Positions 5,383-30,502 are shown, counted from the first letter of the stretch. The stretch: 32,000 bases of DNA from a bacterium (GCA_037444445.1 JBBIMK010000003.1:65211-97210), one strand, 5' to 3'. Numbers and translations: made by a program. The notes: a model not told the origin generated them from the letters alone.

Positions 5383-5394
5383 GAAATTCGGTTT

Positions 5395-5465
5395 TGGGGA
5401 GTCGTCTAACGGCAGGACAGTGGACTCTGGATCCATCAATGGAGGTTCGAGTCCTCCCTCCCCAG
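5395..5465 (+). tRNA. tRNA-Gln (anticodon CUG)
   Basis: Hand-folded cloverleaf. 7-bp acceptor stem TGGGGAG/CTCCCCA with the U1:A72 pair characteristic of bacterial tRNA-Gln, and U8. D-stem GTCT/GGAC with loop AACGGCA. Anticodon stem GTGGA/TCCAT with loop CT-CTG-GA. T-arm GGAGG-TTCGAGT-CCTCC. Discriminator G. CCA is not encoded. Confidence 0.9.
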
Positions 5466-5529
5466 TGGTGTTAGGTTTGCCCGGGCCGGGTCAGGAAAGG
5501 GAGAAAATGAATGAGGTGAGTCAAAGGGT

Positions 5530-7047
5530 GTGGAGAAGGAAGTTTTTTCTCAGATGAAAATTACTATCCCGAAGTCGCAAGCGAATTTTCTTCGTCACAA
5601 TTTTGCGAAAATTATTCGCCTTTCAGTTCCTTATGGCAAGGAACTCTATTCCGGCTCCGACTCCTCACGGATTGCCCAGGAGTTTTCTTCTCTTTTAATC
5701 CACCTGATTAAAAGTGTAGAAGAAGAGAATCCAGAATATTTTTTCTCGGCTCTTCACCGCGCCTTTATGGAATGGATTTCCAAGGGTGTGTATCTGGACC
5801 GAGTAGAGCAGATTTTCAGAAAAATCTTCCAGCGATTGGAGGAAGAGTTCAAGGAAGAACTCGCAGGGTTGTTAATGGCATTCCCCGAACGCCGCGAGAT
5901 TTTCTTTCAAATCGTGAGGGAATATACCAACGCTTTCCGAGAATTTTCAGAGCGTCAGTTGAAGGAACTGGAAATCTTAAACCTGTTGGGAGATTTTACG
6001 AAGGAGGACTTAAAGCGGTTATTCAGGAAGATTTTCCGTAAGACACTACGGGCGTTGAATGCTCAATACGGTGTTCTCTATTATCATGAAAATTCCCTGG
6101 AGATTCTTCAAAAGAAATTGGTGGAGGGAAGCGCTTTTCCCTTTAGCAAACTTGAACTGAGACGTTTTTTAAAGGATACCGCCTATGACCCTAAAGTTCT
6201 CCAGGCGTTTCACCGTATCCTTCAGAAAGGAGAAGTTCGCTCCTTGACCGGGAGCCTGGAGACGGATATAAGAAAGTTGCTTCACCAGGAATGCTCCGTG
6301 TGTTCTGGAGAGCCTGTGTTAGTTACGCGCTATACAGGTGTTTTTGAATGTCCGCTGATACAGACCTTGAAGGTGGGGTCTCTGATGTGTGTTCCCTTTT
6401 ATCGGAATGGAGAGAAACGAGGATTCTTCCTGCTCACTCGCCCGGGTGGTCTCGCCTTTAATCCATATGACCTGCAATTTCTGAAGGTTCTGGTGAACGA
6501 TGTGGCTCGGGGTATGGAGAATTACATCCTGTATTCGGAGCTTCGCCGCCTGGCTACTACGGATGCCCTGACAGGGATTTATAACCGCCGATACTTGATT
6601 GAAGCGATGCGTAGAGAGCACGAACGCTCTAAACGCTATCAAAAATCCTATGCCCTGGTGATGGCTGACCTGGACCATTTCAAGGAGGTCAATGACCAGT
6701 ATGGACATGCGGCCGGGGATGAAGCATTAAAGGTATTCGGTAGAATCCTTAAAAACTATTCTCGTATCACGGATGTGGTGGGACGCTACGGTGGAGAAGA
6801 ATTTCTGGTCATCATCCCGGAAGGAACGGTGACCAGCAGCGCCGCTTTTGCGGAACGCATCCGAAAAACCCTGGAGCAAACGGTGATTACTTCCCCGGTA
6901 GGTGTGCGCTTCCGAATTACTGCCAGTTTCGGTGTTTGTTCCTATCCCCATCACGGAAAAAATCCAGAGAAACTTTTGAAAAAAGTGGATGATTTCCTGT
7001 ATCAAGCGAAGAAACGAGGGCGTAACCGAGTAGAGGTGGCTTCGTGA
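5530..7047 (+). CDS. diguanylate cyclase (GAF-like sensor + GGDEF domain, with I-site)
   Basis: ATTDALTGIYNRRY, DLDHFKEVND and RYGGEEFLVIIP (GGEEF active site), with RITD (RxxD I-site) five residues upstream. GTG start at 5530 with GAGGTGA 9 nt upstream; the ATG at 5554 is the alternative. Confidence 0.85.
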   Translation: MEKEVFSQMKITIPKSQANFLRHNFAKIIRLSVPYGKELYSGSDSSRIAQEFSSLLIHLIKSVEEENPEYFFSALHRAFMEWISKGVYLDRVEQIFRKIFQRLEEEFKEELAGLLMAFPERREIFFQIVREYTNAFREFSERQLKELEILNLLGDFTKEDLKRLFRKIFRKTLRALNAQYGVLYYHENSLEILQKKLVEGSAFPFSKLELRRFLKDTAYDPKVLQAFHRILQKGEVRSLTGSLETDIRKLLHQECSVCSGEPVLVTRYTGVFECPLIQTLKVGSLMCVPFYRNGEKRGFFLLTRPGGLAFNPYDLQFLKVLVNDVARGMENYILYSELRRLATTDALTGIYNRRYLIEAMRREHERSKRYQKSYALVMADLDHFKEVNDQYGHAAGDEALKVFGRILKNYSRITDVVGRYGGEEFLVIIPEGTVTSSAAFAERIRKTLEQTVITSPVGVRFRITASFGVCSYPHHGKNPEKLLKKVDDFLYQAKKRGRNRVEVAS

Positions 7048-8246
7048 AACGCTCCCAAATCTTGAAAGAGTTCATCAGCGTTTCTTCTGCTCTTGCCTCC
7101 CTGGTGGAGCGTCGGTCCACTCAACACCCCTTTCATGTGGCATGGCTGTCGCGTCGGATGGGAGAATCCCTGAACCTCTCCAGGAAAAGTCTCAGAAACC
7201 TTCAATATGCTGCCCTTCTGCATGATATTGGTGAGATTGCTATCCCCGACCGAATCCTCGATAAGCCCGGACAACTCACTCTCGCGGAACGCCTGCAAAT
7301 GGAACGGCATGTTCTCATAGGCTACAATGTGGTTTTCAAAATTCCAACGCTGGAAGAGGCAGCCCTTTTCATTCGCTGGCACCACGAGAAAATAGACGGA
7401 ACCGGCTACCCCGATGGGTTAGAAAACGGTGCCATTCCGATAGAAGCATCGGTGCTGTCTCTGGCCGATGTGTTTGAAACACTGACGAGTGACCGCCCCT
7501 TCCGGAAAGCCTTGCCACAAGCAGTAGCCCTTGAAACCATCCAAAAAATGTCTGGCATTGCTTTTCCTCCCCGGGTCGTCTCTGCCTTTCTGAAGGTTTT
7601 CACCGAGCGAAAATCCCCCCCCACAGATGTTCTACTGAACTATGACCAGGAGAGCGAAGAGGATTTGAGTGAGGATGAATTGATTTTTCATGCCTTTGCC
7701 ATTTCCACTGTTCTATCAGAGTTGGTTTCGGAGAGGCATTCTCATCTGAAAAGCCATGCCGTTCGCACTTCTCTCCTGTGTAGCGCTCTGGGGAATGAAC
7801 TGGGTCTATCTCATAATGATTTGTTCACTCTGGAACTGGCCGCCCTCTTACATGAGGTAGGCATGGCGGCTATACCTTCAGAGATTCTGTTATCTCGCCG
7901 TAAGTTGACCCCTGATGAAAGAGAAATGATTCATCGTCATCCTATCTATTCAGAAGAAATTGCCTCACAGTTGTCTTCTTTTCCAGAGGTGGCCACTGTC
8001 ATTCGTAGTCATCATGAGCGCTATGATGGAAAAGGATATCCCGATGGTTTGAAGGGGGAAGAGATTCCCTACCTATCCCGAATTCTTGCCGTGTGCTCTT
8101 CTTTTGAGGCGATGCTTTCGCGTCGCCCTTATCGCCGAGCGATGAGCCCCTCAGCGGCTTTTGAAACGTTCTTATCCAGCCTGGGAAAGCAATTTGACCC
8201 GGGGCTACAGAAAGCCCTGGAAGCTCTCCTCGTTCATCGTGTATAG
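7044..8246 (+). CDS. tandem HD-GYP domain protein (putative c-di-GMP phosphodiesterase)
   Basis: Two modules: LLHDIGEIAIP...HHEKIDGTGYPDGL and LLHEVGMAAIP...HHERYDGKGYPDGL. The GTG start overlaps the cyclase stop as GTGA (7044-7047), with GAGGTGG 5 nt upstream. Confidence 0.85.
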   Translation: MKRSQILKEFISVSSALASLVERRSTQHPFHVAWLSRRMGESLNLSRKSLRNLQYAALLHDIGEIAIPDRILDKPGQLTLAERLQMERHVLIGYNVVFKIPTLEEAALFIRWHHEKIDGTGYPDGLENGAIPIEASVLSLADVFETLTSDRPFRKALPQAVALETIQKMSGIAFPPRVVSAFLKVFTERKSPPTDVLLNYDQESEEDLSEDELIFHAFAISTVLSELVSERHSHLKSHAVRTSLLCSALGNELGLSHNDLFTLELAALLHEVGMAAIPSEILLSRRKLTPDEREMIHRHPIYSEEIASQLSSFPEVATVIRSHHERYDGKGYPDGLKGEEIPYLSRILAVCSSFEAMLSRRPYRRAMSPSAAFETFLSSLGKQFDPGLQKALEALLVHRV

Positions 8247-17160: not shown

Positions 17161-17862
17161 TCAGGGTTCCTCGGTTAACATCTGGAGGTTTTTCGGTGAT
17201 TTTATCACAATCTGGCGCGGAGTGTAATCAATCCATCCTTCTTTTTTCCACTCGCTCAGAAAGGTGCTGGCTGTTTCTCGGGCAAGGCCAGTCATATTGG
17301 CTATCTCCTGATGTGAAAGGCGCATGGCGAGCCAGGTTCCTTCCGATGGAGCCTGTCCATATTCTTCTGCAAGGAAGAGTAAAAGGCGGGCAAGACGCGT
17401 CGGGGCACTCTTGAAAAGTAAATCCTTCAGGCGAATCTCAAGAATTTTTCTACGAAGGCCCACCAATTTTATAAACTTCAGGGAAAGATAGGGCTTTTCC
17501 TGAAGAAGCCTTTGAAAATCATCTCTGGGCATGATGCAAAGATAGGTCTCTTCCATTGCCATTGCCTGTTCCTCTCTTTCCTCTTCTCCCGCCACAGCCA
17601 TTTCTCCAAAGATGTCCCCTTCTTTCAGGATAGCGATGGTAAATTCTTTGCCTCCCTCTGTGATTCTGGAAATTTTTACCTTCCCCCGCTTAATCATATA
17701 GACGGCACTGGCAGGCGCCCCCGGAAGATAGATGATTTCTCCTCGCTGAAATATCTTCTCCCGTGAATGACGGTCAATGATGAGATAATCTGCATCGGGA
17801 ATCCCCTGAAACAGGTTAATTTTGTGGAGATACCAGATTTTTTGTGCCTCCGGTTTTCCCAT
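17161..17862 (-). CDS. Crp/Fnr-family transcriptional regulator
   Basis: N-terminal cNMP-binding beta-roll (RGEIIYLPGAPASAVYMIKRGKVKISRITEGGKEFTIAILKEGDIFGE) and C-terminal HTH (SHQEIANMTGLARETASTFLSEWKKEG). Confidence 0.85.
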   Translation of the reverse strand: MGKPEAQKIWYLHKINLFQGIPDADYLIIDRHSREKIFQRGEIIYLPGAPASAVYMIKRGKVKISRITEGGKEFTIAILKEGDIFGEMAVAGEEEREEQAMAMEETYLCIMPRDDFQRLLQEKPYLSLKFIKLVGLRRKILEIRLKDLLFKSAPTRLARLLLFLAEEYGQAPSEGTWLAMRLSHQEIANMTGLARETASTFLSEWKKEGWIDYTPRQIVIKSPKNLQMLTEEP

Positions 17863-21066: not shown

Positions 21067-23547
21067 TTAAAAGAGGCGCTGGGGGCGGATTTCTCTCGCT
21101 TTCTCCTCTTCTTTCATTTCTTCGGGTGCGGGTGGGGAAGGCTCCGGGATGGTTTGTTCCCGACTTTCCATCTGTGAAAGAATTTCACGGGCTCTGCGAA
21201 CGACCAGCGGGGGTAATCCTGCCAATCGTGCCACTTCAATTCCATAACTCCGAGTGGCTCGCCCGGGAACCACTTTATGTAATAGCACCACCTCACTGCC
21301 CCTTTCTTCCACTGCTACCTGAAGGTTGAAAGCCCCTTCTATATGATTATCCAGGGCCGTAAGTTCATGATAATGGGTGGCGAAGATGGTCCGACATTTT
21401 AAGTGAGAAGCCACATATTCACCCACCGCCCAGGCGATGGAGATGCCGTCGTAGGTGCTGGTTCCACGACCGATTTCATCCAGAACCACCAGGCTTCTCC
21501 GGGTAGCATTCCGGAGGATTTTTGCTGTTTCTGTCATTTCCATCATGAAAGTGGATTGCCCTCGGGCGATGTCATCAGAGGCGCCCACACGGGTGTAAAT
21601 CCCGTCCACCACACCGATTTCTGCTTTCTCTGCCGGCACGAAACTCCCCATTTGTGCCATGAGTGTGATGAGTGCAATCTGGCGAATGTAGGTGGATTTG
21701 CCGGACATATTAGGACCGGTGATGATGCCGAGGCGCTTGTTTGCTGTATCCAGATAGGCATCGTTGGGAACGAATTCGCCGGGCGGGAGCAGGGCTTCTA
21801 CCACCGGGTGACGCCCCCGATGAATGGAAATCCTCGCCTTCTCGTCTATCAAGGGCTTGCAGTAATCCCGTTCCTCTGCCACCTCGGCGAGGGAAAGGAG
21901 AAAATCCAGTAAGGCAAGCGCGGATGCCATTCTTACCAGGTTTCGGGCTGATTGCTGTGCCTGTTCGGATAAAATCTCTATGAGTTCCTCCTCTCTTGCC
22001 TGCAATTCTTCCTGTGCGGTCAGGACCTTTTCCTCCATTCGTTTTAACTCGGGCGTGGTGAAGCGCTCTGCGTTCACCATGGTTTGTTTACGCTCATACT
22101 CTGCTGGCACGAGGGATAGATTGGGCTTCGTCACCTCAATAAAATACCCGAATATTTTGTTATAGCGAACTTTCAAAGATTTGATGCCCGTTCTCTGGCG
22201 TTCCTTCTCCTCCAGTTGTTGAAACCACCTTTCCCCGTAGGTGGCCAGGGAGCGGAGTTCATCCAGACGATCATCAAAACTGTTGCGAAAGATTTTTTCC
22301 GGGGAATATTCTTCCTCTAAGGCTTGCTCTAAAAGCGATAACATTTGTTGGAATGAGGCGATTGCCGTTTGAATTTCCTTCAACAGAAGGCTCTGAGTGT
22401 CCTGGAGGAGGGGATGAATTAGAGCCACTTTGCGGAGAGAATTTCGGAGGCGGAACAGGTCGTAGGGGCGAATTTTTCGCGCCCCGCATTTCCCCGCCAG
22501 CCGTTCCAGGTCGCCCATCCCTTTGAAAGCCTCCGAAAGGTCATCCCGAAGATATCCGTTGTTGAGCAGTTCTTCTATCGCTGTCTGTCGCTGGAGAATC
22601 TCCGGGATTCGGCAAAGGGGTGCCAGGATTTCGCTCTTCAGAAATCGCTTGCCCATAGGAGTTTTCACCCTGTCCAGACACCACAGCAGACTCCCTTCTT
22701 CTCCCTTCCAGGTTTCCACTAATTCCAGATTCTTTGCGGTGCTGGAATCTAAAACAACCCTCTGCTCCGGATGGTAAAAGCGAATGGTGTGGAAATGGTG
22801 CAATTGAACCAGTTTGAGTGAGGATAGATAGGAGAGGGCGATGACAGAAGCACGAGTGGCAAGAGGATGAGCATCCAGGTCAAAAACTTTTAGAGAGTGG
22901 ACCCCGAAAAAGCGTTTGAGGGTTTCTTCATCGGATGAATACTGGGAATCATCTATGGGGTGAAGGTGAATTCCCGCGGATTGCAGGGTAGTCAGAGTTT
23001 CCTGCCTGCCGAGAAACAAGATTTCTTTCGGACCGCGAAGGAAAATTTCTTCCCGTAGGCGGTCTATCGTGCTACCGGTATGAATTTCTGTGGCGATGAA
23101 CTCGCCGATGGAAGTTTCTACAAAGGCTAAGCCGAATTTCCCGTTCTCTTCCACAATGACGCAGAGATAATTTTTCTTCCCTTCGTCCAGGAACTCTTCC
23201 CGGATAATGGCGCCCGGGGTGAGAACTTCCACCACTTCTCGTTTCACCAGCCCTTTGGCTTTTTTCGGATCTTCCACCTGCTCACAAATGGCTACTTTAC
23301 AGCCCGCTTTTAGCAGGCGCAGGATGTATCGTGAGGCCGAATGATACGGAACACCACACATGGGAACGGATTGGTCTTTTTTCACTCCTCTTCTTGTCAG
23401 AGTGATACCGAGAATTTCCGATGCTTTGCGAGCGTCCTCACCGAACATTTCATAAAAGTCCCCCAGGCGAAAAAGCAGAATAAAATCGGCATAGGTTCGC
23501 TTGAACCGCCGATACTGCATCATCATAGGTGTGAATTTCTCTTCCAC
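21067..23547 (-). CDS. mutS: DNA mismatch repair protein MutS
   Basis: 826 aa. N-terminal TPMMMQYRRFK...LFRLGDFYEMFGEDA (mismatch-binding Phe-x-Glu), Walker A GPNMSGKST and DEIGRGTSTYDG. Confidence 0.95.
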   Translation of the reverse strand: MEEKFTPMMMQYRRFKRTYADFILLFRLGDFYEMFGEDARKASEILGITLTRRGVKKDQSVPMCGVPYHSASRYILRLLKAGCKVAICEQVEDPKKAKGLVKREVVEVLTPGAIIREEFLDEGKKNYLCVIVEENGKFGLAFVETSIGEFIATEIHTGSTIDRLREEIFLRGPKEILFLGRQETLTTLQSAGIHLHPIDDSQYSSDEETLKRFFGVHSLKVFDLDAHPLATRASVIALSYLSSLKLVQLHHFHTIRFYHPEQRVVLDSSTAKNLELVETWKGEEGSLLWCLDRVKTPMGKRFLKSEILAPLCRIPEILQRQTAIEELLNNGYLRDDLSEAFKGMGDLERLAGKCGARKIRPYDLFRLRNSLRKVALIHPLLQDTQSLLLKEIQTAIASFQQMLSLLEQALEEEYSPEKIFRNSFDDRLDELRSLATYGERWFQQLEEKERQRTGIKSLKVRYNKIFGYFIEVTKPNLSLVPAEYERKQTMVNAERFTTPELKRMEEKVLTAQEELQAREEELIEILSEQAQQSARNLVRMASALALLDFLLSLAEVAEERDYCKPLIDEKARISIHRGRHPVVEALLPPGEFVPNDAYLDTANKRLGIITGPNMSGKSTYIRQIALITLMAQMGSFVPAEKAEIGVVDGIYTRVGASDDIARGQSTFMMEMTETAKILRNATRRSLVVLDEIGRGTSTYDGISIAWAVGEYVASHLKCRTIFATHYHELTALDNHIEGAFNLQVAVEERGSEVVLLHKVVPGRATRSYGIEVARLAGLPPLVVRRAREILSQMESREQTIPEPSPPAPEEMKEEEKAREIRPQRLF

Positions 23548-23573: not shown

Positions 23574-23582
23574 CTTATACCA
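23574..23582 (-). promoter_or_regulatory. extended -10 element (TGgTATAAG) upstream of mutS
   Basis: Minus strand reads TGGTATAAG, 26 nt upstream of the GTG start, with GGGAGAAGGG as RBS in between. Confidence 0.4.
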
Positions 23583-24011
23583 GGTTTGCGTTCAGAATCA
23601 GGCGATGATTCACAGCGCAGTATCTACCAAACTTTTGGGTTCAGGCACCAAAAGTGCTGGTGAAATGGTTCTATCTCTTGCATTTTCTAAGGGTCTATAA
23701 TCTGAATAATTTTAAATGACTATCATTTTATGATAGAGATTACCTCGCTCATTGAATCGTAATTCACATTTTTTGAGATGGAAGTAAAGGTTTTGAACTC
23801 TGACCCCATTGAACCTCAATAGCCTGCGTTTGGCAAAGGCTCAGAAAGCGCTGTTATTGCCGATTCACTGTGTTGCGATTTATCCCGTAAGACAAGCAGT
23901 TTGGGTGGCGGTTAGGTCTTCACAGAAATACCGGAAAATTTTTTTAATTTGTCATCAGTTAATTTTGCCGTATTTTGATAAGCATCTAAACGATTTTACC
24001 ACAAAAATTTC

Positions 24012-24956
24012 CTATTCTATACCTCTTTCAGCAAGAGTATCACAGAGGGATTGCGGATTAAATAATTCCTGCAAGAAGACAATATCGGGGTCCAAATCAT
24101 TTTGGACACGCTCTCTAACCTCTTCTTCGTCTGTCTTCCAGCAAAGTTTGTTTTTGTAGCCGTGTTTCAAGCACTTAACCGCCGCATTTCCTACATTGGC
24201 GGTGAGAGTGGTATAAATGGAATCACCACCTCCTACTCCGCCGGTCGCCTCCAGCCCGCTCCGCAGACCTGAAAAACCTGAACTACCAGTTCCCTGTGTA
24301 TTTTGGATGCAGAGACCTTGAGAATAGGACCAGCGCCTACCCTCTCCGCCTATGCAGCTGTAGCCATCCCAGATTCCGCCGGAGGATATGCAAGCGCTCA
24401 TTGCTTCATTCATCTTCACAGCCCCGAACTGAAAGCCTTCTTTCACTGCTAATCCTTGACTCGGGATTGCAGGGTCGTCTATCAGGTCATAGATGAACCC
24501 CTGGGCCAGTCCATCAACTGGAAAATCCCAGAAAATTGGCTCTCTGTGAAAATCCTCCTGCACTACTTTGTACCAGGTAAATAGGTCCGGTTCAGGAGCA
24601 GATTGACTTATTTTCACTCTGTCGTAGGGTGAAATCAGCCCTATACTTGCAGATTCCCTATTGAACTCCTCTGCATCTGAAGAAATGATAATGTAATCAC
24701 TCAGAGGGATGATGTAGGACGGCAGGGGATGAGGGGATTGATTGGCTGGCAGAATAGTGAGTTTGAAGTTTGTGGGATTCTCAACCAAATGAGTGGAGAT
24801 TGCGAGAGTGTGCTGCCCCAGCATAATCTTTCCACCGGAGGAATCCACCACCGCGTAGCCGGTGAGGCTAAGAATGGGCAAGTGGCAGTAGTCATCATCC
24901 GTTTCTTCAGGCGGAGGGCAATTGGTAAAAGGTAGCGATGACGGATTTATCCGCAT
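24012..24956 (-). CDS. C-terminal fragment of a surface lipoprotein gene (unknown domain, lectin-like Cys/Gly-rich region, then the first ~25 residues of an EEP-type nuclease/phosphatase domain)
   Basis: 314-aa ORF with no RBS before its ATG. It overlaps the upstream ORF by 50 nt in the +1 frame. It ends ...VQNDLDPDIVFLQELFNPQ..., which resembles the first motif of the endonuclease/exonuclease/phosphatase fold, then stops. Probably part of one disrupted gene; see findings. Confidence 0.5.
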   Translation of the reverse strand: MRINPSSLPFTNCPPPEETDDDYCHLPILSLTGYAVVDSSGGKIMLGQHTLAISTHLVENPTNFKLTILPANQSPHPLPSYIIPLSDYIIISSDAEEFNRESASIGLISPYDRVKISQSAPEPDLFTWYKVVQEDFHREPIFWDFPVDGLAQGFIYDLIDDPAIPSQGLAVKEGFQFGAVKMNEAMSACISSGGIWDGYSCIGGEGRRWSYSQGLCIQNTQGTGSSGFSGLRSGLEATGGVGGGDSIYTTLTANVGNAAVKCLKHGYKNKLCWKTDEEEVRERVQNDLDPDIVFLQELFNPQSLCDTLAERGIE

Positions 24957-25371
24957 CCATCGTTAGATTGCAGGTGCTGGTGCCTCTGCATTCTCCACCC
25001 CGGCCCGCAAAACTCCAGCCGGAATCCGGGGTCGCTGTAAGAGCCACAGATGTGTTAGAGGGGAAAGAGGCGGTGCAGGTGTCCCCACAGTGAATCCCTG
25101 CCGGGATGCTGATGACGGTGCCGTTTCCGAATCGGCTCACCGTCAGAGTGGAGTCACCACTTTGAGGAGTGAACGAACCCTGGCTGATGCGCACTGGAAT
25201 GGGGTCGGACCAGGAACCCAATTCTCCCTTTGCATCCATCGCCCGACATTGCACGGAATACATGCCCGGCGAATCAAAGGAGTGGGAAAGGGTTACGGTG
25301 GTGCCACTGGCAACCCTCTCGCCTTCTGTATCCACCGCTTCATCTCCATTCCAATCCCACTGGTAAATCAC
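24907..25371 (-). CDS. N-terminal fragment of the same lipoprotein gene: PKD-like domain + InlB B-repeat-like domain
   Basis: YQWDWNGDE...YSVQCRAMD is PKD-like. STLTVSRFGNGTVISIPAGIHCGDTCTASFPSNTSVALTATPDSGWSFAGRGGECRGTSTCNLTMDADKSVIATF fits the divergent InlB B-repeat pattern. The frame stays open upstream to 25575 and there encodes a lipobox signal peptide (LTIAIFLILQPAC), but the only canonical start in frame is GTG 25371. Confidence 0.55.
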   Translation of the reverse strand: MIYQWDWNGDEAVDTEGERVASGTTVTLSHSFDSPGMYSVQCRAMDAKGELGSWSDPIPVRISQGSFTPQSGDSTLTVSRFGNGTVISIPAGIHCGDTCTASFPSNTSVALTATPDSGWSFAGRGGECRGTSTCNLTMDADKSVIATFYQLPSA

Positions 25372-25890
25372 CCGCTTCCCTTCCGGGTCCGTAGCGGAGC
25401 AGGGAAAATCCAGGTTCCCGTGGATGACTCCCCTCGTGGGCCCACCCAGGGATGCCTTCGTCGGGGAGAGTTTCCGGAGAATTTCTTGCTCGCCTCCCCC
25501 GCTACCCCTCTTGCACGCAGGTTGAAGAATTAAGAAAATAGCGATAGTAAGCCCTCCCCACTTACTCCACCCCTTTTACCTTCAATATTCTACATTTGTG
25601 GTGAAAGTCAGCCTCCATTTTCTACTCGCTCTTTTCACTTTCTTTTATTACTATTCATTACCAGTTTTTTATGTGAATTCGTGCGAGTAACCAGGATAAT
25701 GATTAGGGCAGGTGAGGGCTATCTGCCCTCCCGAGTTATTTACCACATATTTTCAAGCATCCCGATTTCATTGGAACTATGTAATAAACCCTTTTAGGGT
25801 CAGGCCTCAAAAGTTCACATCACCGGATCAGGCTATATTGGCGCAAAAAAGCAAGCATCTTGTATCGCAGAGGTCTATAATAGTAGGAGG

Positions 25891-26707: not shown

Positions 26708-26735
26708 TTGCAATCAAAAATAACAGGTGTATAAT
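26708..26735 (+). promoter_or_regulatory. sigma70 promoter TTGCAA-16-TATAAT for the cysM operon
   Basis: TTGCAA at 26708-26713 and TATAAT at 26730-26735, with TG immediately upstream, 41 nt before ATG 26777. Confidence 0.55.
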
Positions 26736-26776
26736 ATATAATTGGTAATGATTATCAATAATGGGGTAGTTGAAGG

Positions 26777-27754
26777 ATGAACCCAAAAACCTCCTTCGCG
26801 CCTGGTTTTTCACCGGTGGAGAGAGACTTGATTTCTCTCATCGGAAATACACCCCTTCTGCCCTTTCGGGATGAGGCGCTCTTGCACAACGGGGTGAGTT
26901 TCTATTTGAAGGCGGAGTGGTATAATCCCGGCGGAAGTGTAAAGGACCGCCCCGTTCTCTTCATCCTCAGGGAGGGAGAATCTGCCGGGGAACTCAGGAA
27001 GGGGAAAACAATACTGGATGCGACCTCGGGAAATGGGGGCATCTCTTATGCGTGGATGGGGGGTCGCATGGGGTATCCGGTGAAGTTGTGCATTCCTTCC
27101 AATGCCAGCACAGAACGGATAAAACTCCTTCAGATTCTGGGTGCAGAACTGGTATTCACAGACCCTCTGGAGGGAACGGATGGGGCGAGAAAAGTGGCGG
27201 AAAGCCTGCGTCATGAATCACCCGATGATTTCTTCTATCCCGACCAGTACGGAAATCCAGCCAATCCGCTTTCTCATTACACCACCACAGGCCCAGAAAT
27301 CTGGAATCAAACGGAGAAAAACATCACCCATTTCGTTTGTGGCCTGGGCACCACAGGCACTTTTATGGGGTGCGGGAGGTTTTTGAAACAGGTGAACCCT
27401 GAAATTCGCCTCCTCACTGTGGAGCCTGACACTCCATTTCATGGGCTGGAAGGATTAAAATATCAGGATGCCACCTCGCCCGCTGGATTTTATGACCCCC
27501 TGCTGGCGGATGAACACTGCTATATTCGGACGGAGGATGCTTACGACCTTCTGCGTTATCTCGCCCGCAAACACGGGCTTCTGGTGGGACCCTCCTCCGG
27601 CGCCGCTATCCTCGCCGGTATTCAAACCGCAAAGAAATTAAAAGAAGGAACCATCGTTGTGCTTTGCCCTGATTCCGCTTCCCGATACCTGTCGGAGCGT
27701 TTCTGGCAGGCGCATTTCACGGAAGTTCAACATGCGTTGGATTCCAGTAAATAA
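26777..27754 (+). CDS. cysM: PLP-dependent cysteine synthase, CysM-like (sulfur-carrier/O-phosphoserine type suggested by context)
   Basis: NPGGSVKDRP (PLP lysine), TSGNGGISYA, GLGTTGTFMG and GPSSGAA. Followed by JAMM, CysO-like and MoeZ-like genes, as in the mycobacterial mec-cysO-cysM system. Confidence 0.85.
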   Translation: MNPKTSFAPGFSPVERDLISLIGNTPLLPFRDEALLHNGVSFYLKAEWYNPGGSVKDRPVLFILREGESAGELRKGKTILDATSGNGGISYAWMGGRMGYPVKLCIPSNASTERIKLLQILGAELVFTDPLEGTDGARKVAESLRHESPDDFFYPDQYGNPANPLSHYTTTGPEIWNQTEKNITHFVCGLGTTGTFMGCGRFLKQVNPEIRLLTVEPDTPFHGLEGLKYQDATSPAGFYDPLLADEHCYIRTEDAYDLLRYLARKHGLLVGPSSGAAILAGIQTAKKLKEGTIVVLCPDSASRYLSERFWQAHFTEVQHALDSSK

Positions 27755-27820
27755 CCTGACATTCAAGACAGGTAAGGCTCCCCCCCGCCTTCTGGTAAAA
27801 AAGGACCCGGGTGAAAGGAG

Positions 27821-28270
27821 ATGCTTCGTCTTCCCGTTGAACTTTTAGAGGAAATCTACCGACATGTAGAAGTTACCTATCCGGAAGAAGGTTGTGGATT
27901 TCTGGTGGGGCAGTGGGAAGACGAAGAAGATGTAATGGTTCTTCAGGTTTTACCTGTTTCTAATACACGGGTGGATTCCCGCCATAACCGATATCTCATT
28001 TCTCCGGAGGTATTTTTACAGGTGAACCGGGAGGTGGAGAAACAGTCGCTGGAGATTGTGGGATTTTATCATTCCCACCCGGATGCACCCGCAAAGCCGT
28101 CCGATTTTGACCGAGATTACGCCTGGTTCGGCTATGTGTATATGATTGTGCCTGCCCACAGGGGTAAGAGCGGTATGCCTCAGGTGTGGAAATTAACCGA
28201 GGACCGTTCGTCTTTTTTGCCGGAAAGTCTGATACTATTGGAACGGAGGGATATGGTGTGGCAACGGTGA
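27821..28270 (+). CDS. mec: JAMM/MPN+ zinc metallohydrolase (Mec-like)
   Basis: EEGCGFLVG (catalytic Glu) and GFYHSHPDAPAKPSDFD (H-x-H-x7-S-x2-D JAMM motif). GAAAGGAG RBS. Confidence 0.85.
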   Translation: MLRLPVELLEEIYRHVEVTYPEEGCGFLVGQWEDEEDVMVLQVLPVSNTRVDSRHNRYLISPEVFLQVNREVEKQSLEIVGFYHSHPDAPAKPSDFDRDYAWFGYVYMIVPAHRGKSGMPQVWKLTEDRSSFLPESLILLERRDMVWQR

Positions 28271-29688
28271 AAATCCCTGCTCCTTTGCGCCGTTTCACTC
28301 ATCACCAGAACGACATCCCCATTGATGGAGTCAATGTAAGGGAGGTTCTGAAAAATTTGCGCCAGCAGTTTCCTGTGTTAGAAAAACACCTTTTTACCGA
28401 GGACCAACAACTGCGGAATTTTGTTACTCTATTCTTAAATAACGAGGATATTCGCTCGTTGCAGGGGCTGGACACTCCGGTTAAGGAAGGAGACGAAATT
28501 TCCATCGTTCCAGCGATAGCGGGGGGGATGAGAAAGAATGAAGTCATTCTCACTCCGGAAGAAATCCTGCGTTACTCCCGCCATCTCATTATGCCCGAGG
28601 TGGGAATGGAGGGGCAAAAGAAGTTGAAGTCTGCCCGCATCCTCATCGTAGGGATGGGAGGGCTCGGATGCCCCGTCTCTACCTACCTTACCATGGCAGG
28701 AGTGGGAACCCTCGGCATTCTGGACTTTGATAGGGTGGAACTTTCTAATCTTCAGCGCCAACCCCTATATGTGACTGATGATGTGGGCAAACTCAAGGTG
28801 GAAGTGGCGAAAAAAAGGCTGAATGCTATGAATCCTCATGTGCGTATTCAAGTGCATCCCGTGCAACTTACCTCAGAGAACGCTATGGAGATTTTGCAGG
28901 ATTATGACCTGGTTGTGGATGGAACAGACAATTTTCCCACCCGGTATTTAGTGAACGATGCCTGCGTGCTGTTGAAGAAGCCGTATGTCTATGGGAGCCT
29001 ATTCCGCTTTGAGGGGCAGGTGACCGTCTTCGGAGGGGAAGGAGGTCCCTGCTATCGGTGCTTATATCCGGAGCCGCCACCGCCTGACCTGGTTCCGTCG
29101 TGTGCAGAAGGAGGTGTTCTGGGCGTTCTCCCCGGCTTCGTCGGCGCCTGGCAAGCACTGGAAGCTATGAAACTCATCCTGAATGAAGGGGAAAGCCTCC
29201 GCGGCCGCTTTATCCTCATAGATGCCATTCAGGGGCGAGCTCGCGAATTCAAAATTCATCCCAATCCCCAGTGCCCCGCCTGTGGCAATCACCCCACTAT
29301 CCACCGGCTGATAGATTATGACGAGTTTTGCGGTGCACATCGGGCAGAGCAGGCCATACAACTGGATAAGGATTGGGAGATTACACCGAAGGAATTAAAA
29401 GCCCTTCTGGGCTCTAAAAAAGATGTGGTGATTCTGGATGTCCGGGAGCCAGTAGAATACCAAATCTGCCATCTACCCGGCTCTCGCCTCATTCCTCTGG
29501 GTGAACTTCCTTACCGGCTGGGAGAACTGGACACTTCCGAGCATATCGTGATTCACTGTCACACAGGCTCCAGAAGTGCTCGTGCTGTGCAGTTCCTTCG
29601 CCAGATGGGATTCACCCGGGTAAAAAATCTAAAAGGAGGGATTGATGCCTGGGCAGAGCAGGTGGCACCCTCTATGCCCAGATACTAA
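28258..29688 (+). CDS. CysO/MoaD-like sulfur-carrier (ends ...AIAGG) fused in frame to a MoeZ/MoeB-type E1-like adenylyltransferase with C-terminal rhodanese domain
   Basis: Residues from VKIPAPLRRF to FLNNEDIRSLQGLDTPVKEGDEISIVPAIAGG (nt 28258-28527) resemble M. tuberculosis CysO (VSIPTILR...YVNDEDVRF...GDSVTILPAVAGG). Next comes MRKNEV...LRYSRH...IVGMGGLGCP, CYRC and CPAC zinc motifs, PSCAEGGVLG, and a rhodanese domain with CHTGSRS. GTG 28258 has GGAGGG 7 nt upstream; GTG 28267 overlaps the mec stop as GTGA. The junction is a G7 run (28521-28527). Confidence 0.8.
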   Translation: MATVKIPAPLRRFTHHQNDIPIDGVNVREVLKNLRQQFPVLEKHLFTEDQQLRNFVTLFLNNEDIRSLQGLDTPVKEGDEISIVPAIAGGMRKNEVILTPEEILRYSRHLIMPEVGMEGQKKLKSARILIVGMGGLGCPVSTYLTMAGVGTLGILDFDRVELSNLQRQPLYVTDDVGKLKVEVAKKRLNAMNPHVRIQVHPVQLTSENAMEILQDYDLVVDGTDNFPTRYLVNDACVLLKKPYVYGSLFRFEGQVTVFGGEGGPCYRCLYPEPPPPDLVPSCAEGGVLGVLPGFVGAWQALEAMKLILNEGESLRGRFILIDAIQGRAREFKIHPNPQCPACGNHPTIHRLIDYDEFCGAHRAEQAIQLDKDWEITPKELKALLGSKKDVVILDVREPVEYQICHLPGSRLIPLGELPYRLGELDTSEHIVIHCHTGSRSARAVQFLRQMGFTRVKNLKGGIDAWAEQVAPSMPRY

Positions 29689-29689
29689 A

Positions 29690-30502
29690 ATGAGCATACC
29701 TTTTCCTCATATCAGTATAGAAGAAACCTTGACCCTTTATCCTCATGAGTATCCTGACTCACTGCGTGTGGAGCGGGTGATGCATTCCATCCAGCAAGAT
29801 GGGATATTACGGAATCCGGTCATTGTAACGCCCATCAAAAATGGCTTTGTCCTGCTGGATGGAACCAATCGCCTGGAGGCTTTCCGCCGTCTTTCCATCC
29901 CGTATATTCCAGTTCAAATCGTGTCTACCGCTTCTCCCGATGTTCAGTTGAAGTCGTGGGCACATCAGGTGAGTGATGCGGTGGAAATAGACGAGGAAGT
30001 TCAATCGCTGTTTCAGCAATTTCAGGCAGAGGTTCAGGTGGCAAAGGCCCTTTCATCCTTTACTCCGTGTGAGGAGAAAGATTATCTTTTATCCTACATC
30101 ACCCCCCGCACTTCTTTAACGGTATATCTCAAGGGGCGAGCAGTGAAAAAAGCCGCCCTCCTCAACCACTTTGTCAACTCCCTGCGGAAAGTAGATACCC
30201 TCTACCGATTTAATCCGGAAGATGAGGTAACTCTCCGAAACACCCATCAGTATGCCTATTACATGGTCTTTCGGAAGGACCAGATTGTGGAAATGGCGAA
30301 GAAGCGGGAAAAACTGCCCTGTGGAATTACACGCTTCCAGGTCGCCGGACGAGCCCTTGGCCTGGATGTCCCTCTTTCTGTTCTATCCAGACGGGAAACC
30401 CTGGAATCCAAAAAATCCTACCTGAAACGGTTGCTGGAAGAACGGAAAAAAGCCAGGAAAATCCGCCTCTACTCCGAGCCTGTCTACATCTTCAACGACT
30501 GA
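29690..30502 (+). CDS. ParB/sulfiredoxin-fold protein; candidate free serine kinase (SerK-like)
   Basis: N-terminal NPVIVTPIKNGFVLLDGTNRLEAFRRLSIPYIPVQIV carries the ParB/Srx DGxxR-type motif. The ATG is 1 nt after the moeZ stop. The function is inferred from context only. Confidence 0.6.
   Translation: MSIPFPHISIEETLTLYPHEYPDSLRVERVMHSIQQDGILRNPVIVTPIKNGFVLLDGTNRLEAFRRLSIPYIPVQIVSTASPDVQLKSWAHQVSDAVEIDEEVQSLFQQFQAEVQVAKALSSFTPCEEKDYLLSYITPRTSLTVYLKGRAVKKAALLNHFVNSLRKVDTLYRFNPEDEVTLRNTHQYAYYMVFRKDQIVEMAKKREKLPCGITRFQVAGRALGLDVPLSVLSRRETLESKKSYLKRLLEERKKARKIRLYSEPVYIFND

Follow-up and report, generated by a model that had tools for sequence, protein, structure and literature searches.

A bacterial cysM-JAMM-cysO~moeZ operon with an appended putative free L-serine kinase gene: a candidate serine-to-cysteine module

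The stretch of bacterial DNA analysed here (the window; 32,000 nucleotides, GCA_037444445.1 JBBIMK010000003.1:65211-97210) carries, at positions 26708-30502, four closely packed open reading frames (ORFs) on the + strand that together encode five functions. The first (26777-27754) encodes a CysM-like cysteine synthase of 325 amino acids (aa) that depends on pyridoxal phosphate (PLP; Pfam PALP, 1.8e-62; NCBIfam cysM, 2.3e-88), and the second (27821-28270) encodes a Mec-like zinc peptidase of the JAMM/MPN+ type (149 aa; Prok-JAB, 9.8e-22). The third joins a CysO-like ThiS/MoaD beta-grasp carrier domain of 90 codons, which ends in AIAGG (28258-28527; Pfam ThiS, 1.8e-14), to a MoeZ-type E1 portion (28528-29688) composed of a ThiF domain (approx. 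28573-29280; 4.4e-85) and a rhodanese domain with the motif CHTGSRS (approx. 29383-29658; 4.2e-24). The last ORF, running from ATG 29690 to 30502, encodes a 270-aa protein, hereafter the fifth protein, that matches in PDB, NCBIfam and fold comparisons assign to the SbnI/SerK family as a putative free L-serine kinase. The intergenic gaps are 66, -13 and 1 nt, the JAMM gene overlapping the fusion gene by 13 nt. Re-reading of the sequence and domain scans thus confirmed the features and spacing listed in a first-pass annotation of this DNA, as well as its domain and motif assignments; Pfam, NCBIfam and PDB comparisons likewise support its proposal of a CysO/CysM/JAMM/MoeZ-type operon for cysteine synthesis via a protein thiocarboxylate. 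Two relatives from independent assemblies, L003 (Logan SRR11582170; approx. 94% nucleotide identity, entire operon) and L002 (a JGI metagenome; approx. 85%), indicate purifying selection on all five coding parts (dN/dS 0.13-0.28 against the window), the kinase-like gene being the most constrained of them (0.13-0.14).

A putative sigma-70-type promoter lies on the + strand at 26708-26735 (TTGCAA at 26708-26713, a 16-nt spacer and TATAAT at 26730-26735), 41 nt 5' of the cysM start codon. With 10 of 12 positions matched, it is the top + strand site in the region; however, six promoter-like sites were found between 25.5 and 31.5 kb as against 5.7 +/- 2.0 in shuffled sequence, which is the chance level. 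The match is thus not significant, and it is the position of the site that leads to its assignment. No riboswitch or other RNA leader reached the Rfam gathering score, the sole match in the window being a tRNA-Gln located elsewhere.

The product of the last gene, which the first-pass annotation regarded as an unexplained protein with a ParB/sulfiredoxin fold, turns out to be a full-length, two-domain homologue of SbnI and SerK in which the catalytic residues are conserved. In sequence comparisons with PDB, it matches three SbnI entries (E-values of 7.5e-16 to 9.7e-15; residues 19-268 for the two full-length entries) and, at an E-value of 0.01, SerK of Thermococcus kodakarensis. Among the NCBIfam models, SbnI scores 93.5 bits (1.3e-26; cutoff 350) and SerK 35.6 bits (5.2e-9; cutoff 380). 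An AlphaFold2 model built from 81 homologues (predicted local distance difference test score, 91.7; predicted template modelling score, 0.89) was compared with PDB using Foldseek, and its nine best matches are SbnI (5uje, 5ujd and 6nr6), SerK (5x0b, 5x0e, 5x0g, 5x0j and 5x0k) and a Pyrococcus protein (1vk1). All nine span both domains over 241-267 columns, with target-length template modelling (TM) scores of 0.77-0.82 for SbnI and 0.69-0.75 for SerK. The next fold matches, sulfiredoxin, ParB and Noc, are weaker by at least nine orders of magnitude in E-value and cover only the N-domain (approx. 80-130 columns for ParB and Noc; TMq of approx. 0.25 for ParB and sulfiredoxin). Residues E20 and D57 (the latter within LLDGTNR) align with Glu20 and Asp58 of SbnI and, in the case of E20, with E30 of SerK; neither varies across 81 diverse aligned homologues. 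Glu20 and Asp58 are needed for SbnI to act as a kinase, as stated in PMC9641203 with reference to Verstraete 2018, and the SerK structures in PDB include E30A and E30Q mutants. Homology, together with the O-phospho-L-serine (OPS)-linked gene neighbourhoods described below, suggests that the fifth gene product is most likely a divergent free L-serine kinase of the SbnI/SerK family.

Other identities for this protein were considered and rejected. A sulfiredoxin is a single domain of approx. 100 aa with its catalytic cysteine in a GCHR motif; the fifth protein has two domains in 270 aa, its LDGTNR motif lacks a cysteine at the catalytic position, and the sequence match to sulfiredoxin has an E-value of only 0.46. 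A canonical ParB is excluded by a sub-threshold Pfam ParB_N match (17.2 bits; cutoff 26.3), by a structural likeness confined to the N-domain and by the Pfam scan, which found neither a helix-turn-helix (HTH) nor any other DNA-binding domain in the protein. Pfam, PDB sequence and fold comparisons also led to rejection of a nuclease identity. As for the translation start, an upstream ATG at 29645, which follows a strong Shine-Dalgarno-like AAGGAGG (the two together within 29633-29647), lies out of frame inside the 3' end of the E1 gene, and gene callers have used it as the start for a close relative (P0001, 285 aa). It is excluded as the conserved start by a stop codon that interrupts this frame in L002; ATG 29690 is therefore taken as the conserved start.

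The CysM-like enzyme carries its PLP lysine at K56 (GGSVKDR) and scores 296.5 bits against the NCBIfam cysM model, which is below the cutoff of 394. Its best PDB match is the Salmonella/E. coli CysM (5e-60); M. tuberculosis CysM (3.6e-47) aligns with it over the whole length, and the two have C-terminal tails of similar length. The enteric CysM is an O-acetylserine enzyme, whereas M. tuberculosis CysM uses OPS, which it binds through Arg220. The equivalent of Arg220 is Lys228 in the window enzyme, and lysine also occupies this position in five relatives, whereas both the enteric and the M. tuberculosis enzymes have arginine (alignment A6). Because the enteric enzyme also has arginine there, the site does not discriminate between the two substrates. 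It could be argued that the window CysM is an ordinary enzyme that uses O-acetylserine with sulfide or thiosulfate, and that the carrier, E1 and JAMM proteins serve molybdenum cofactor (Moco) synthesis, tRNA thiolation or SAMP-like modification. The enteric best match fits this possibility, as do the matches of the carrier to SAMP1 and MoaD models and the fact that the best NCBIfam match of the JAMM protein is the archaeal desampylase. Nonetheless, the PALP-JAB-ThiS~E1 gene order is conserved in four of four distant relatives, and there are no Moco or tRNA-thiolation genes within the operon. In addition, a serine kinase beside CysO/CysM genes makes sense only if OPS is consumed, which speaks against a CysM restricted to O-acetylserine. 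We therefore consider an ordinary CysM next to an unrelated sulfur-transfer or modification system unlikely.

The JAMM motif is complete, with the glutamate in PEEGCG followed by HSHPDAPAKPSDFD (HxHx7Sx2D); besides desampylase (3.9e-23), the protein matches PDB entry 2kcq (1.8e-24). Carrier and E1 are encoded by a single ORF that starts at GTG 28258 and ends at 29688 (476 aa; ThiS at residues 4-90, ThiF at 106-341 and rhodanese at 376-467). The AIAGG end of the carrier runs directly into MRKNEV of the E1 in the same reading frame, and the Gly-Gly is therefore internal. The carrier domain matches a ThiS/MoaD family protein (PDB 4n6e_B; 5e-12 over residues 2-90), while the E1 scores below the equivalog cutoffs of both MoeB (1.1e-145; 486 bits) and MoeZ (4.9e-139; 463.6 bits, cutoff 647). 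The GG/M junction falls on a stretch of seven consecutive G (gcgggggggatgag), and six G would instead yield AIAGG followed by a stop codon, with an ATGA overlap. A homopolymer sequencing artefact is nonetheless ruled out, since the fusion is in frame in both L003 (GCGGGGGGAATGGGT) and L002 (GCAGGGGGGATGAGG), where the junction nucleotides differ, and since the three-Pfam-domain architecture is shared by all of the best 120 homologues of the 476-aa protein. These homologues are 56-61% identical to it, save the window's own protein and the L002 relative, and the names of the metagenome-assembled genomes (MAGs) among them include Acidobacteria, Ignavibacteria, Thermoplasmata and Nitrososphaerales. 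The carrier-E1 fusion is thus genuine and common.

To our knowledge, cleavage of a carrier~E1 fusion of this kind has not been demonstrated. Because an E1 adenylates only a free C-terminal glycine, the carrier has to be released from the fusion beforehand, and the JAMM protein, whose gene overlaps the fusion gene by the 13 nt noted above, is the obvious candidate for this cleavage. Every CysO-like carrier found beside a kinase homologue is either fused to an E1 or capped after its Gly-Gly, with V, SPRRCLCR, SLSG or RR following AMAGG. Capped carriers require a JAMM protease such as QbsD for exposure of the Gly-Gly (PMC6006322), and Mec has been described as maturing MetO (GapMind 2026 preprint).

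The combination of an E1, a JAB-type peptidase and a ubiquitin-like protein (Ubl) also characterizes anti-phage systems, namely Cap2/Cap3 of cyclic oligonucleotide-based anti-phage signalling systems (CBASS) and the Bil type. The E1 and JAB domains do give weak PADLOC matches to E1-E2 and JAB models, and there is a weak match to the NCBIfam 6A-MBL cap2_3 model. However, the PADLOC matches do not exceed 65 bits and are confined to the shared adenylation/JAB core, whereas Pfam ThiF gives 285 bits and NCBIfam MoeB 486 bits. Moreover, neither an E2 region nor an effector is present, the locus does encode a rhodanese domain and a cysteine synthase, and the chromosomal setting is that of housekeeping genes. 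An anti-phage function is thus effectively refuted, and its probability appears negligible.

The contiguity of the four core functions, which the first-pass annotation pointed out, is not special. Operons of a ThiS/MoaD protein, an E1-rhodanese, a JAB protein and a cysteine synthase were listed by Iyer, Burroughs and Aravind in 2006 (PMC1779556, Table 1, row 4c), who also noted a fusion of a Ub-like domain with ThiF beside a cysteine synthase. Furthermore, all four distant relatives looked up (L089/L090, L091, L092 and L093) carry PALP-JAB-ThiS~ThiF~Rhodanese in the same order, and none of these four contains the fifth gene. Lack of conservation of this gene with the other four had been named beforehand as a refuting result, and the outcome is mixed: the gene is kept in the immediate lineage (L002 and L003) but is absent from most related operons. 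Its linkage to the same functions nonetheless reappears in other lineages, with CysO/CysM/JAMM/E1 genes in differing gene orders at five loci (L001, L009, L015, L076 and L077) and as a fusion of a Prok-JAB domain with a kinase-like domain (P0150). In L002, the segment corresponding to window positions 26993-28161 is missing (L002:1808-2190 equals window 26708-26992 joined to 28162 onward), which leaves a 71-aa cysM stub and the last approx. 34 codons of the JAMM gene, while the cysO~E1 and kinase-like genes are intact and under purifying selection. This gap reflects either a deletion that occurs naturally or an error of metagenome assembly.

The kinase-like family is large. A word-indexed homologue search with the fifth protein returned three matches only, so that an exhaustive HMMER search was required; among 1.84 billion representatives, 1,428 clusters passed a limit of E <= 1e-3 in this search, a number that falls to 116 at E <= 1e-30. 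The members are mostly labelled as hypothetical (approx. 1,400 clusters at 50% identity). The genomic context of the family was surveyed at 80 metagenomic loci with kinase-like relatives of 27-34% identity, which were searched for the window proteins and for families of neighbouring genes. A gene for a SerA-like dehydrogenase lies directly upstream of the kinase-like gene at 19 of the 80 loci, and TrpB2 (NCBIfam 'TrpB-like PLP-dependent enzyme', approx. 700 bits) is encoded within 2.5 kb at another recognisable set of 16 (L011-L014, L019, L020, L024, L026, L033, L037, L038, L046, L055, L057, L059 and L068). CysO/CysM(/JAMM/E1) clusters containing the kinase-like gene account for four loci, and 41 have none of the tested neighbours, including 18 at which the sequence available upstream is shorter than 1 kb. 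SerA-type enzymes are part of the phosphoserine pathway, and N-terminal SerA-like D-2-hydroxyacid dehydrogenases are even fused to the kinase-like domain in six of the proteins checked (P0022, P0117, P0131, P0145, P0008 and P0041), two or three of which are N-terminally truncated. In Desulfurococcales, serK adjoins SerA-type genes of the phosphoserine pathway (PMC5120207). TrpB2 is an OPS-dependent tryptophan synthase according to Busch 2014, as cited in PMC11917138, and its adjacency suggests a dedicated supply of OPS. O-Phosphoserine is thus the common thread among the recognisable partners of the kinase gene.

The four CysO/CysM clusters differ in organisation. L009 and L015 share the order ThiS-kinase-CysM-JAMM, L076 has ThiS…E1…CysM-kinase, and L077 has CysM-ThiS~E1-CysM-ThiS…kinase. 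The E1 of L076 (704 aa; L076:2789-4903) carries additional N-terminal rhodanese repeats, and L077:1254-4598 encodes two paralogues of CysM along with a pair of CysO-like carriers, of which one is fused to a rhodanese-less E1 and the other is free and RR-capped. In L001, which holds the closest homologue outside the window lineage (37% identity), the kinase-like gene directly follows an unfused ThiF-Rhodanese (MoeZ) gene. An 89-aa ORF lies 3' of this kinase-like gene with a 1-nt overlap (L001:2650-2919); it has no family match and no GG end and is not ThiS-like. It should also be mentioned that the ORF directly downstream of the kinase-like gene encodes a PilZ domain at 13 of the 66 loci scanned (L001 and L004-L088, alignment A7).

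These contexts bear on two other roles for the fifth protein. It might act mainly as a regulator or sensor of its operon, as SbnI does for the sbn operon, either without supplying OPS or in addition to doing so. NCBIfam and PDB indeed name SbnI a 'bifunctional transcriptional regulator/O-phospho-L-serine synthase', and the fifth gene is the last in its operon and is dispensable in most related operons. However, the family shows no variation in the kinase catalytic residues, the Pfam scan described above gave no DNA-binding domain, and the recurrent partners, some of them fused, are metabolic enzymes that use or make OPS; a mainly regulatory role is therefore improbable. Alternatively, the protein might phosphorylate another substrate (homoserine, threonine or a residue of the carrier protein) or function in serine catabolism or synthesis rather than feeding CysM. 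The subfamily is distant and scores well below the equivalog cutoffs, many relatives lie beside SerA-like dehydrogenases, which fits the assimilation of serine to 3-phosphoglycerate proposed for SerK (PMC5120207), and a SerK-like archaeal protein has been reported to bind CTP rather than ATP (PMC12704722). Nonetheless, the partner in the operon belongs to the CysK/CysM family and is not a threonine-synthase-type enzyme using O-phosphohomoserine; moreover, the pairing with CysM recurs in L009, L015, L076 and L077, and the JAB fusion exists. A kinase that does not feed CysM thus appears unlikely, to much the same degree as a mainly regulatory one.

From the gene content, order and coupling, the domain architectures, motifs and fold, the conservation of catalytic residues and the recurrent genomic association, we infer a route in which every enzymatic step is a prediction, as are the substrate that CysM prefers, the phosphate donor that the kinase uses and the cleavage of the fusion. 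It appears fairly likely that the operon provides a self-contained pathway by which L-serine is converted to L-cysteine via phosphate activation and a protein-bound thiocarboxylate. The fifth protein would phosphorylate free L-serine to OPS, while the JAMM protein would cut the CysO~MoeZ polypeptide after Gly90 and thereby bare the C-terminal Gly-Gly of the carrier. The E1 would then adenylate the terminal glycine, and the rhodanese domain would bring the sulfur, yielding the CysO-thiocarboxylate. CysM would condense the latter with OPS to form a CysO-cysteine adduct, which the same JAMM protein would hydrolyse, recycling CysO and setting cysteine free as the M. tuberculosis pathway does.

Several observations weigh against this serine-to-cysteine route. 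By sequence, the window CysM is slightly nearer to the enteric than to the M. tuberculosis enzyme, and the OPS-binding arginine of the latter is replaced by lysine, at a site that does not discriminate, the enteric enzyme also having arginine there. The fifth protein scores far below the SbnI and SerK equivalog cutoffs; it thus represents a divergent subfamily and is an equivalog of neither, and its substrate could differ; SbnI itself is also a DNA-binding regulator. The kinase gene is accessory rather than obligate, since most related cysM-JAB-cysO~E1 operons do without it, and, if the L002 deletion is real, the cysO~E1 and kinase genes can persist without cysM and the JAMM gene. Finally, about half of the surveyed kinase relatives (the 41 loci mentioned above, with their 18 short upstream regions) have no tested neighbour, and at five Chloroflexota MAG loci, the only ones that a 5-sequence alignment query yielded in a genome collection, the neighbours of the kinase-like gene are unrelated.

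The first-pass annotation considered the locus a candidate for an undescribed pathway variant. This holds in part: the four-function core has long been catalogued, but no coupling of a serine kinase to the CysO route turned up in the searchable literature, full-text searches (in which coverage of subscription journals is incomplete) having returned no paper on a free serine kinase combined with CysO or another sulfur carrier. Thus, the parts are known, and what is new is the appended SbnI/SerK-type kinase, which would make the core a serine-to-cysteine module. Also new, apparently, is the size of the kinase family in bacteria, together with its clustering with OPS-dependent enzymes. Makino et al. 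(2016) did not find clear SerK homologues in bacteria, and a 2025 survey of ParB folds treats SerK and SbnI as isolated examples. In its broadest form, the proposal is that the SbnI/SerK fold marks a family of free serine kinases, large in bacteria and scarcely annotated, that has been repeatedly recruited as a dedicated source of OPS for OPS-dependent PLP enzymes, whether for CysM with CysO-thiocarboxylate, for TrpB2 or for SbnA. In the uncultured lineage studied here, such a kinase would round off a portable module leading from serine to cysteine, independent of both serine acetyltransferase and SerA/SerC, in which one JAMM protein would free both carrier and cysteine. We regard this broad proposal as evenly poised between right and wrong.

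If the serine-to-cysteine route proposed for the operon is confirmed, serine phosphorylation dedicated to cysteine synthesis occurs in bacteria and not only in Thermococcales, and one operon joins two known pieces, a kinase acting on free serine and the thiocarboxylate route through CysO. A concrete function is also predicted for the large family annotated as "ParB-like hypothetical proteins", and TrpB2 tryptophan synthases gain a likely source of OPS. In genomes of this kind, cysteine prototrophy would escape pathway annotation that looks for cysE or serA/serC. The carrier-E1 fusion with its adjacent JAMM gene would, in turn, represent a simple prokaryotic case of the processing of a ubiquitin-like precursor.

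The remainder of the window is ordinary chromosomal DNA, with genes for MutS, AnmK, RmlA and cyclic di-GMP (c-di-GMP) signalling in addition to the tRNA-Gln gene. By MutS comparison, the lineage is an unclassified bacterial one represented solely in metagenomes: the nearest relatives are MAGs labelled 'bacterium' at 63% and 52% identity, and no match in named phyla is above approx. 50%. The tRNA-Gln(CTG) gene lies at 5394-5466; a GGDEF diguanylate cyclase comes next (5530-8246), together with a response-regulator c-di-GMP phosphodiesterase (NosR-family match), and a Crp/Fnr-type regulator is encoded at 17161-17862. Between mutS (21067-23547) and a gene for a GT2 glycosyltransferase, a segment of approx. 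2.2 kb (23580-25870) is missing in both L002 and L003. It carries two minus-strand ORFs, one without a family match (24012-24956) and one with PKD/InlB B-repeat domains (24907-25371), and looks like a strain-specific insertion of a surface-protein fragment.

Comparison with known systems shows how each element of the operon resembles, and departs from, its precedents. In staphyloferrin B synthesis, SbnI supplies OPS to SbnA, an OPS-dependent enzyme of the CysK family. The fifth protein shares full-length homology and fold with this staphylococcal protein, retains the equivalents of Glu20 and Asp58 and is likewise encoded beside a CysK-family PLP enzyme that would consume OPS. However, identity in the structural alignment is only approx. 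20-22%, and the partners are CysM and a sulfur carrier instead of SbnA. With T. kodakarensis SerK, an ADP-dependent kinase that feeds cysteine synthesis (PMC5120207), the protein has in common the fold, a catalytic glutamate (E30 aligned to E20) and the same logic of serine to OPS to cysteine. The two differ in that SerK (16-18% identity in the structural alignment) is archaeal and belongs to a pathway in which the sulfur source is not a protein thiocarboxylate.

The processing of the carrier has its closest parallels in QbsE/QbsD and MetO/Mec, in which the Gly-Gly is also not at a free C-terminus and the JAMM gene is also adjacent; however, the cap in QbsE- and MetO-type carriers is one to a few residues, whereas in the window it is the whole E1 of 386 residues. 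The operons catalogued in PMC1779556 encode the same four functions but include no gene for a ParB-fold protein or serine kinase (that paper has 0 occurrences of the term 'ParB'). The CysO-CysM-Mec(-MoeZ) system of M. tuberculosis (Rv1334-1336 and Rv3206c) likewise has all four functions. In M. tuberculosis, OPS comes from the SerA/SerC pathway; in the window, by comparison, the carrier is fused to the E1, the E1 gene lies inside the operon, and the putative serine kinase gene is appended to its end.

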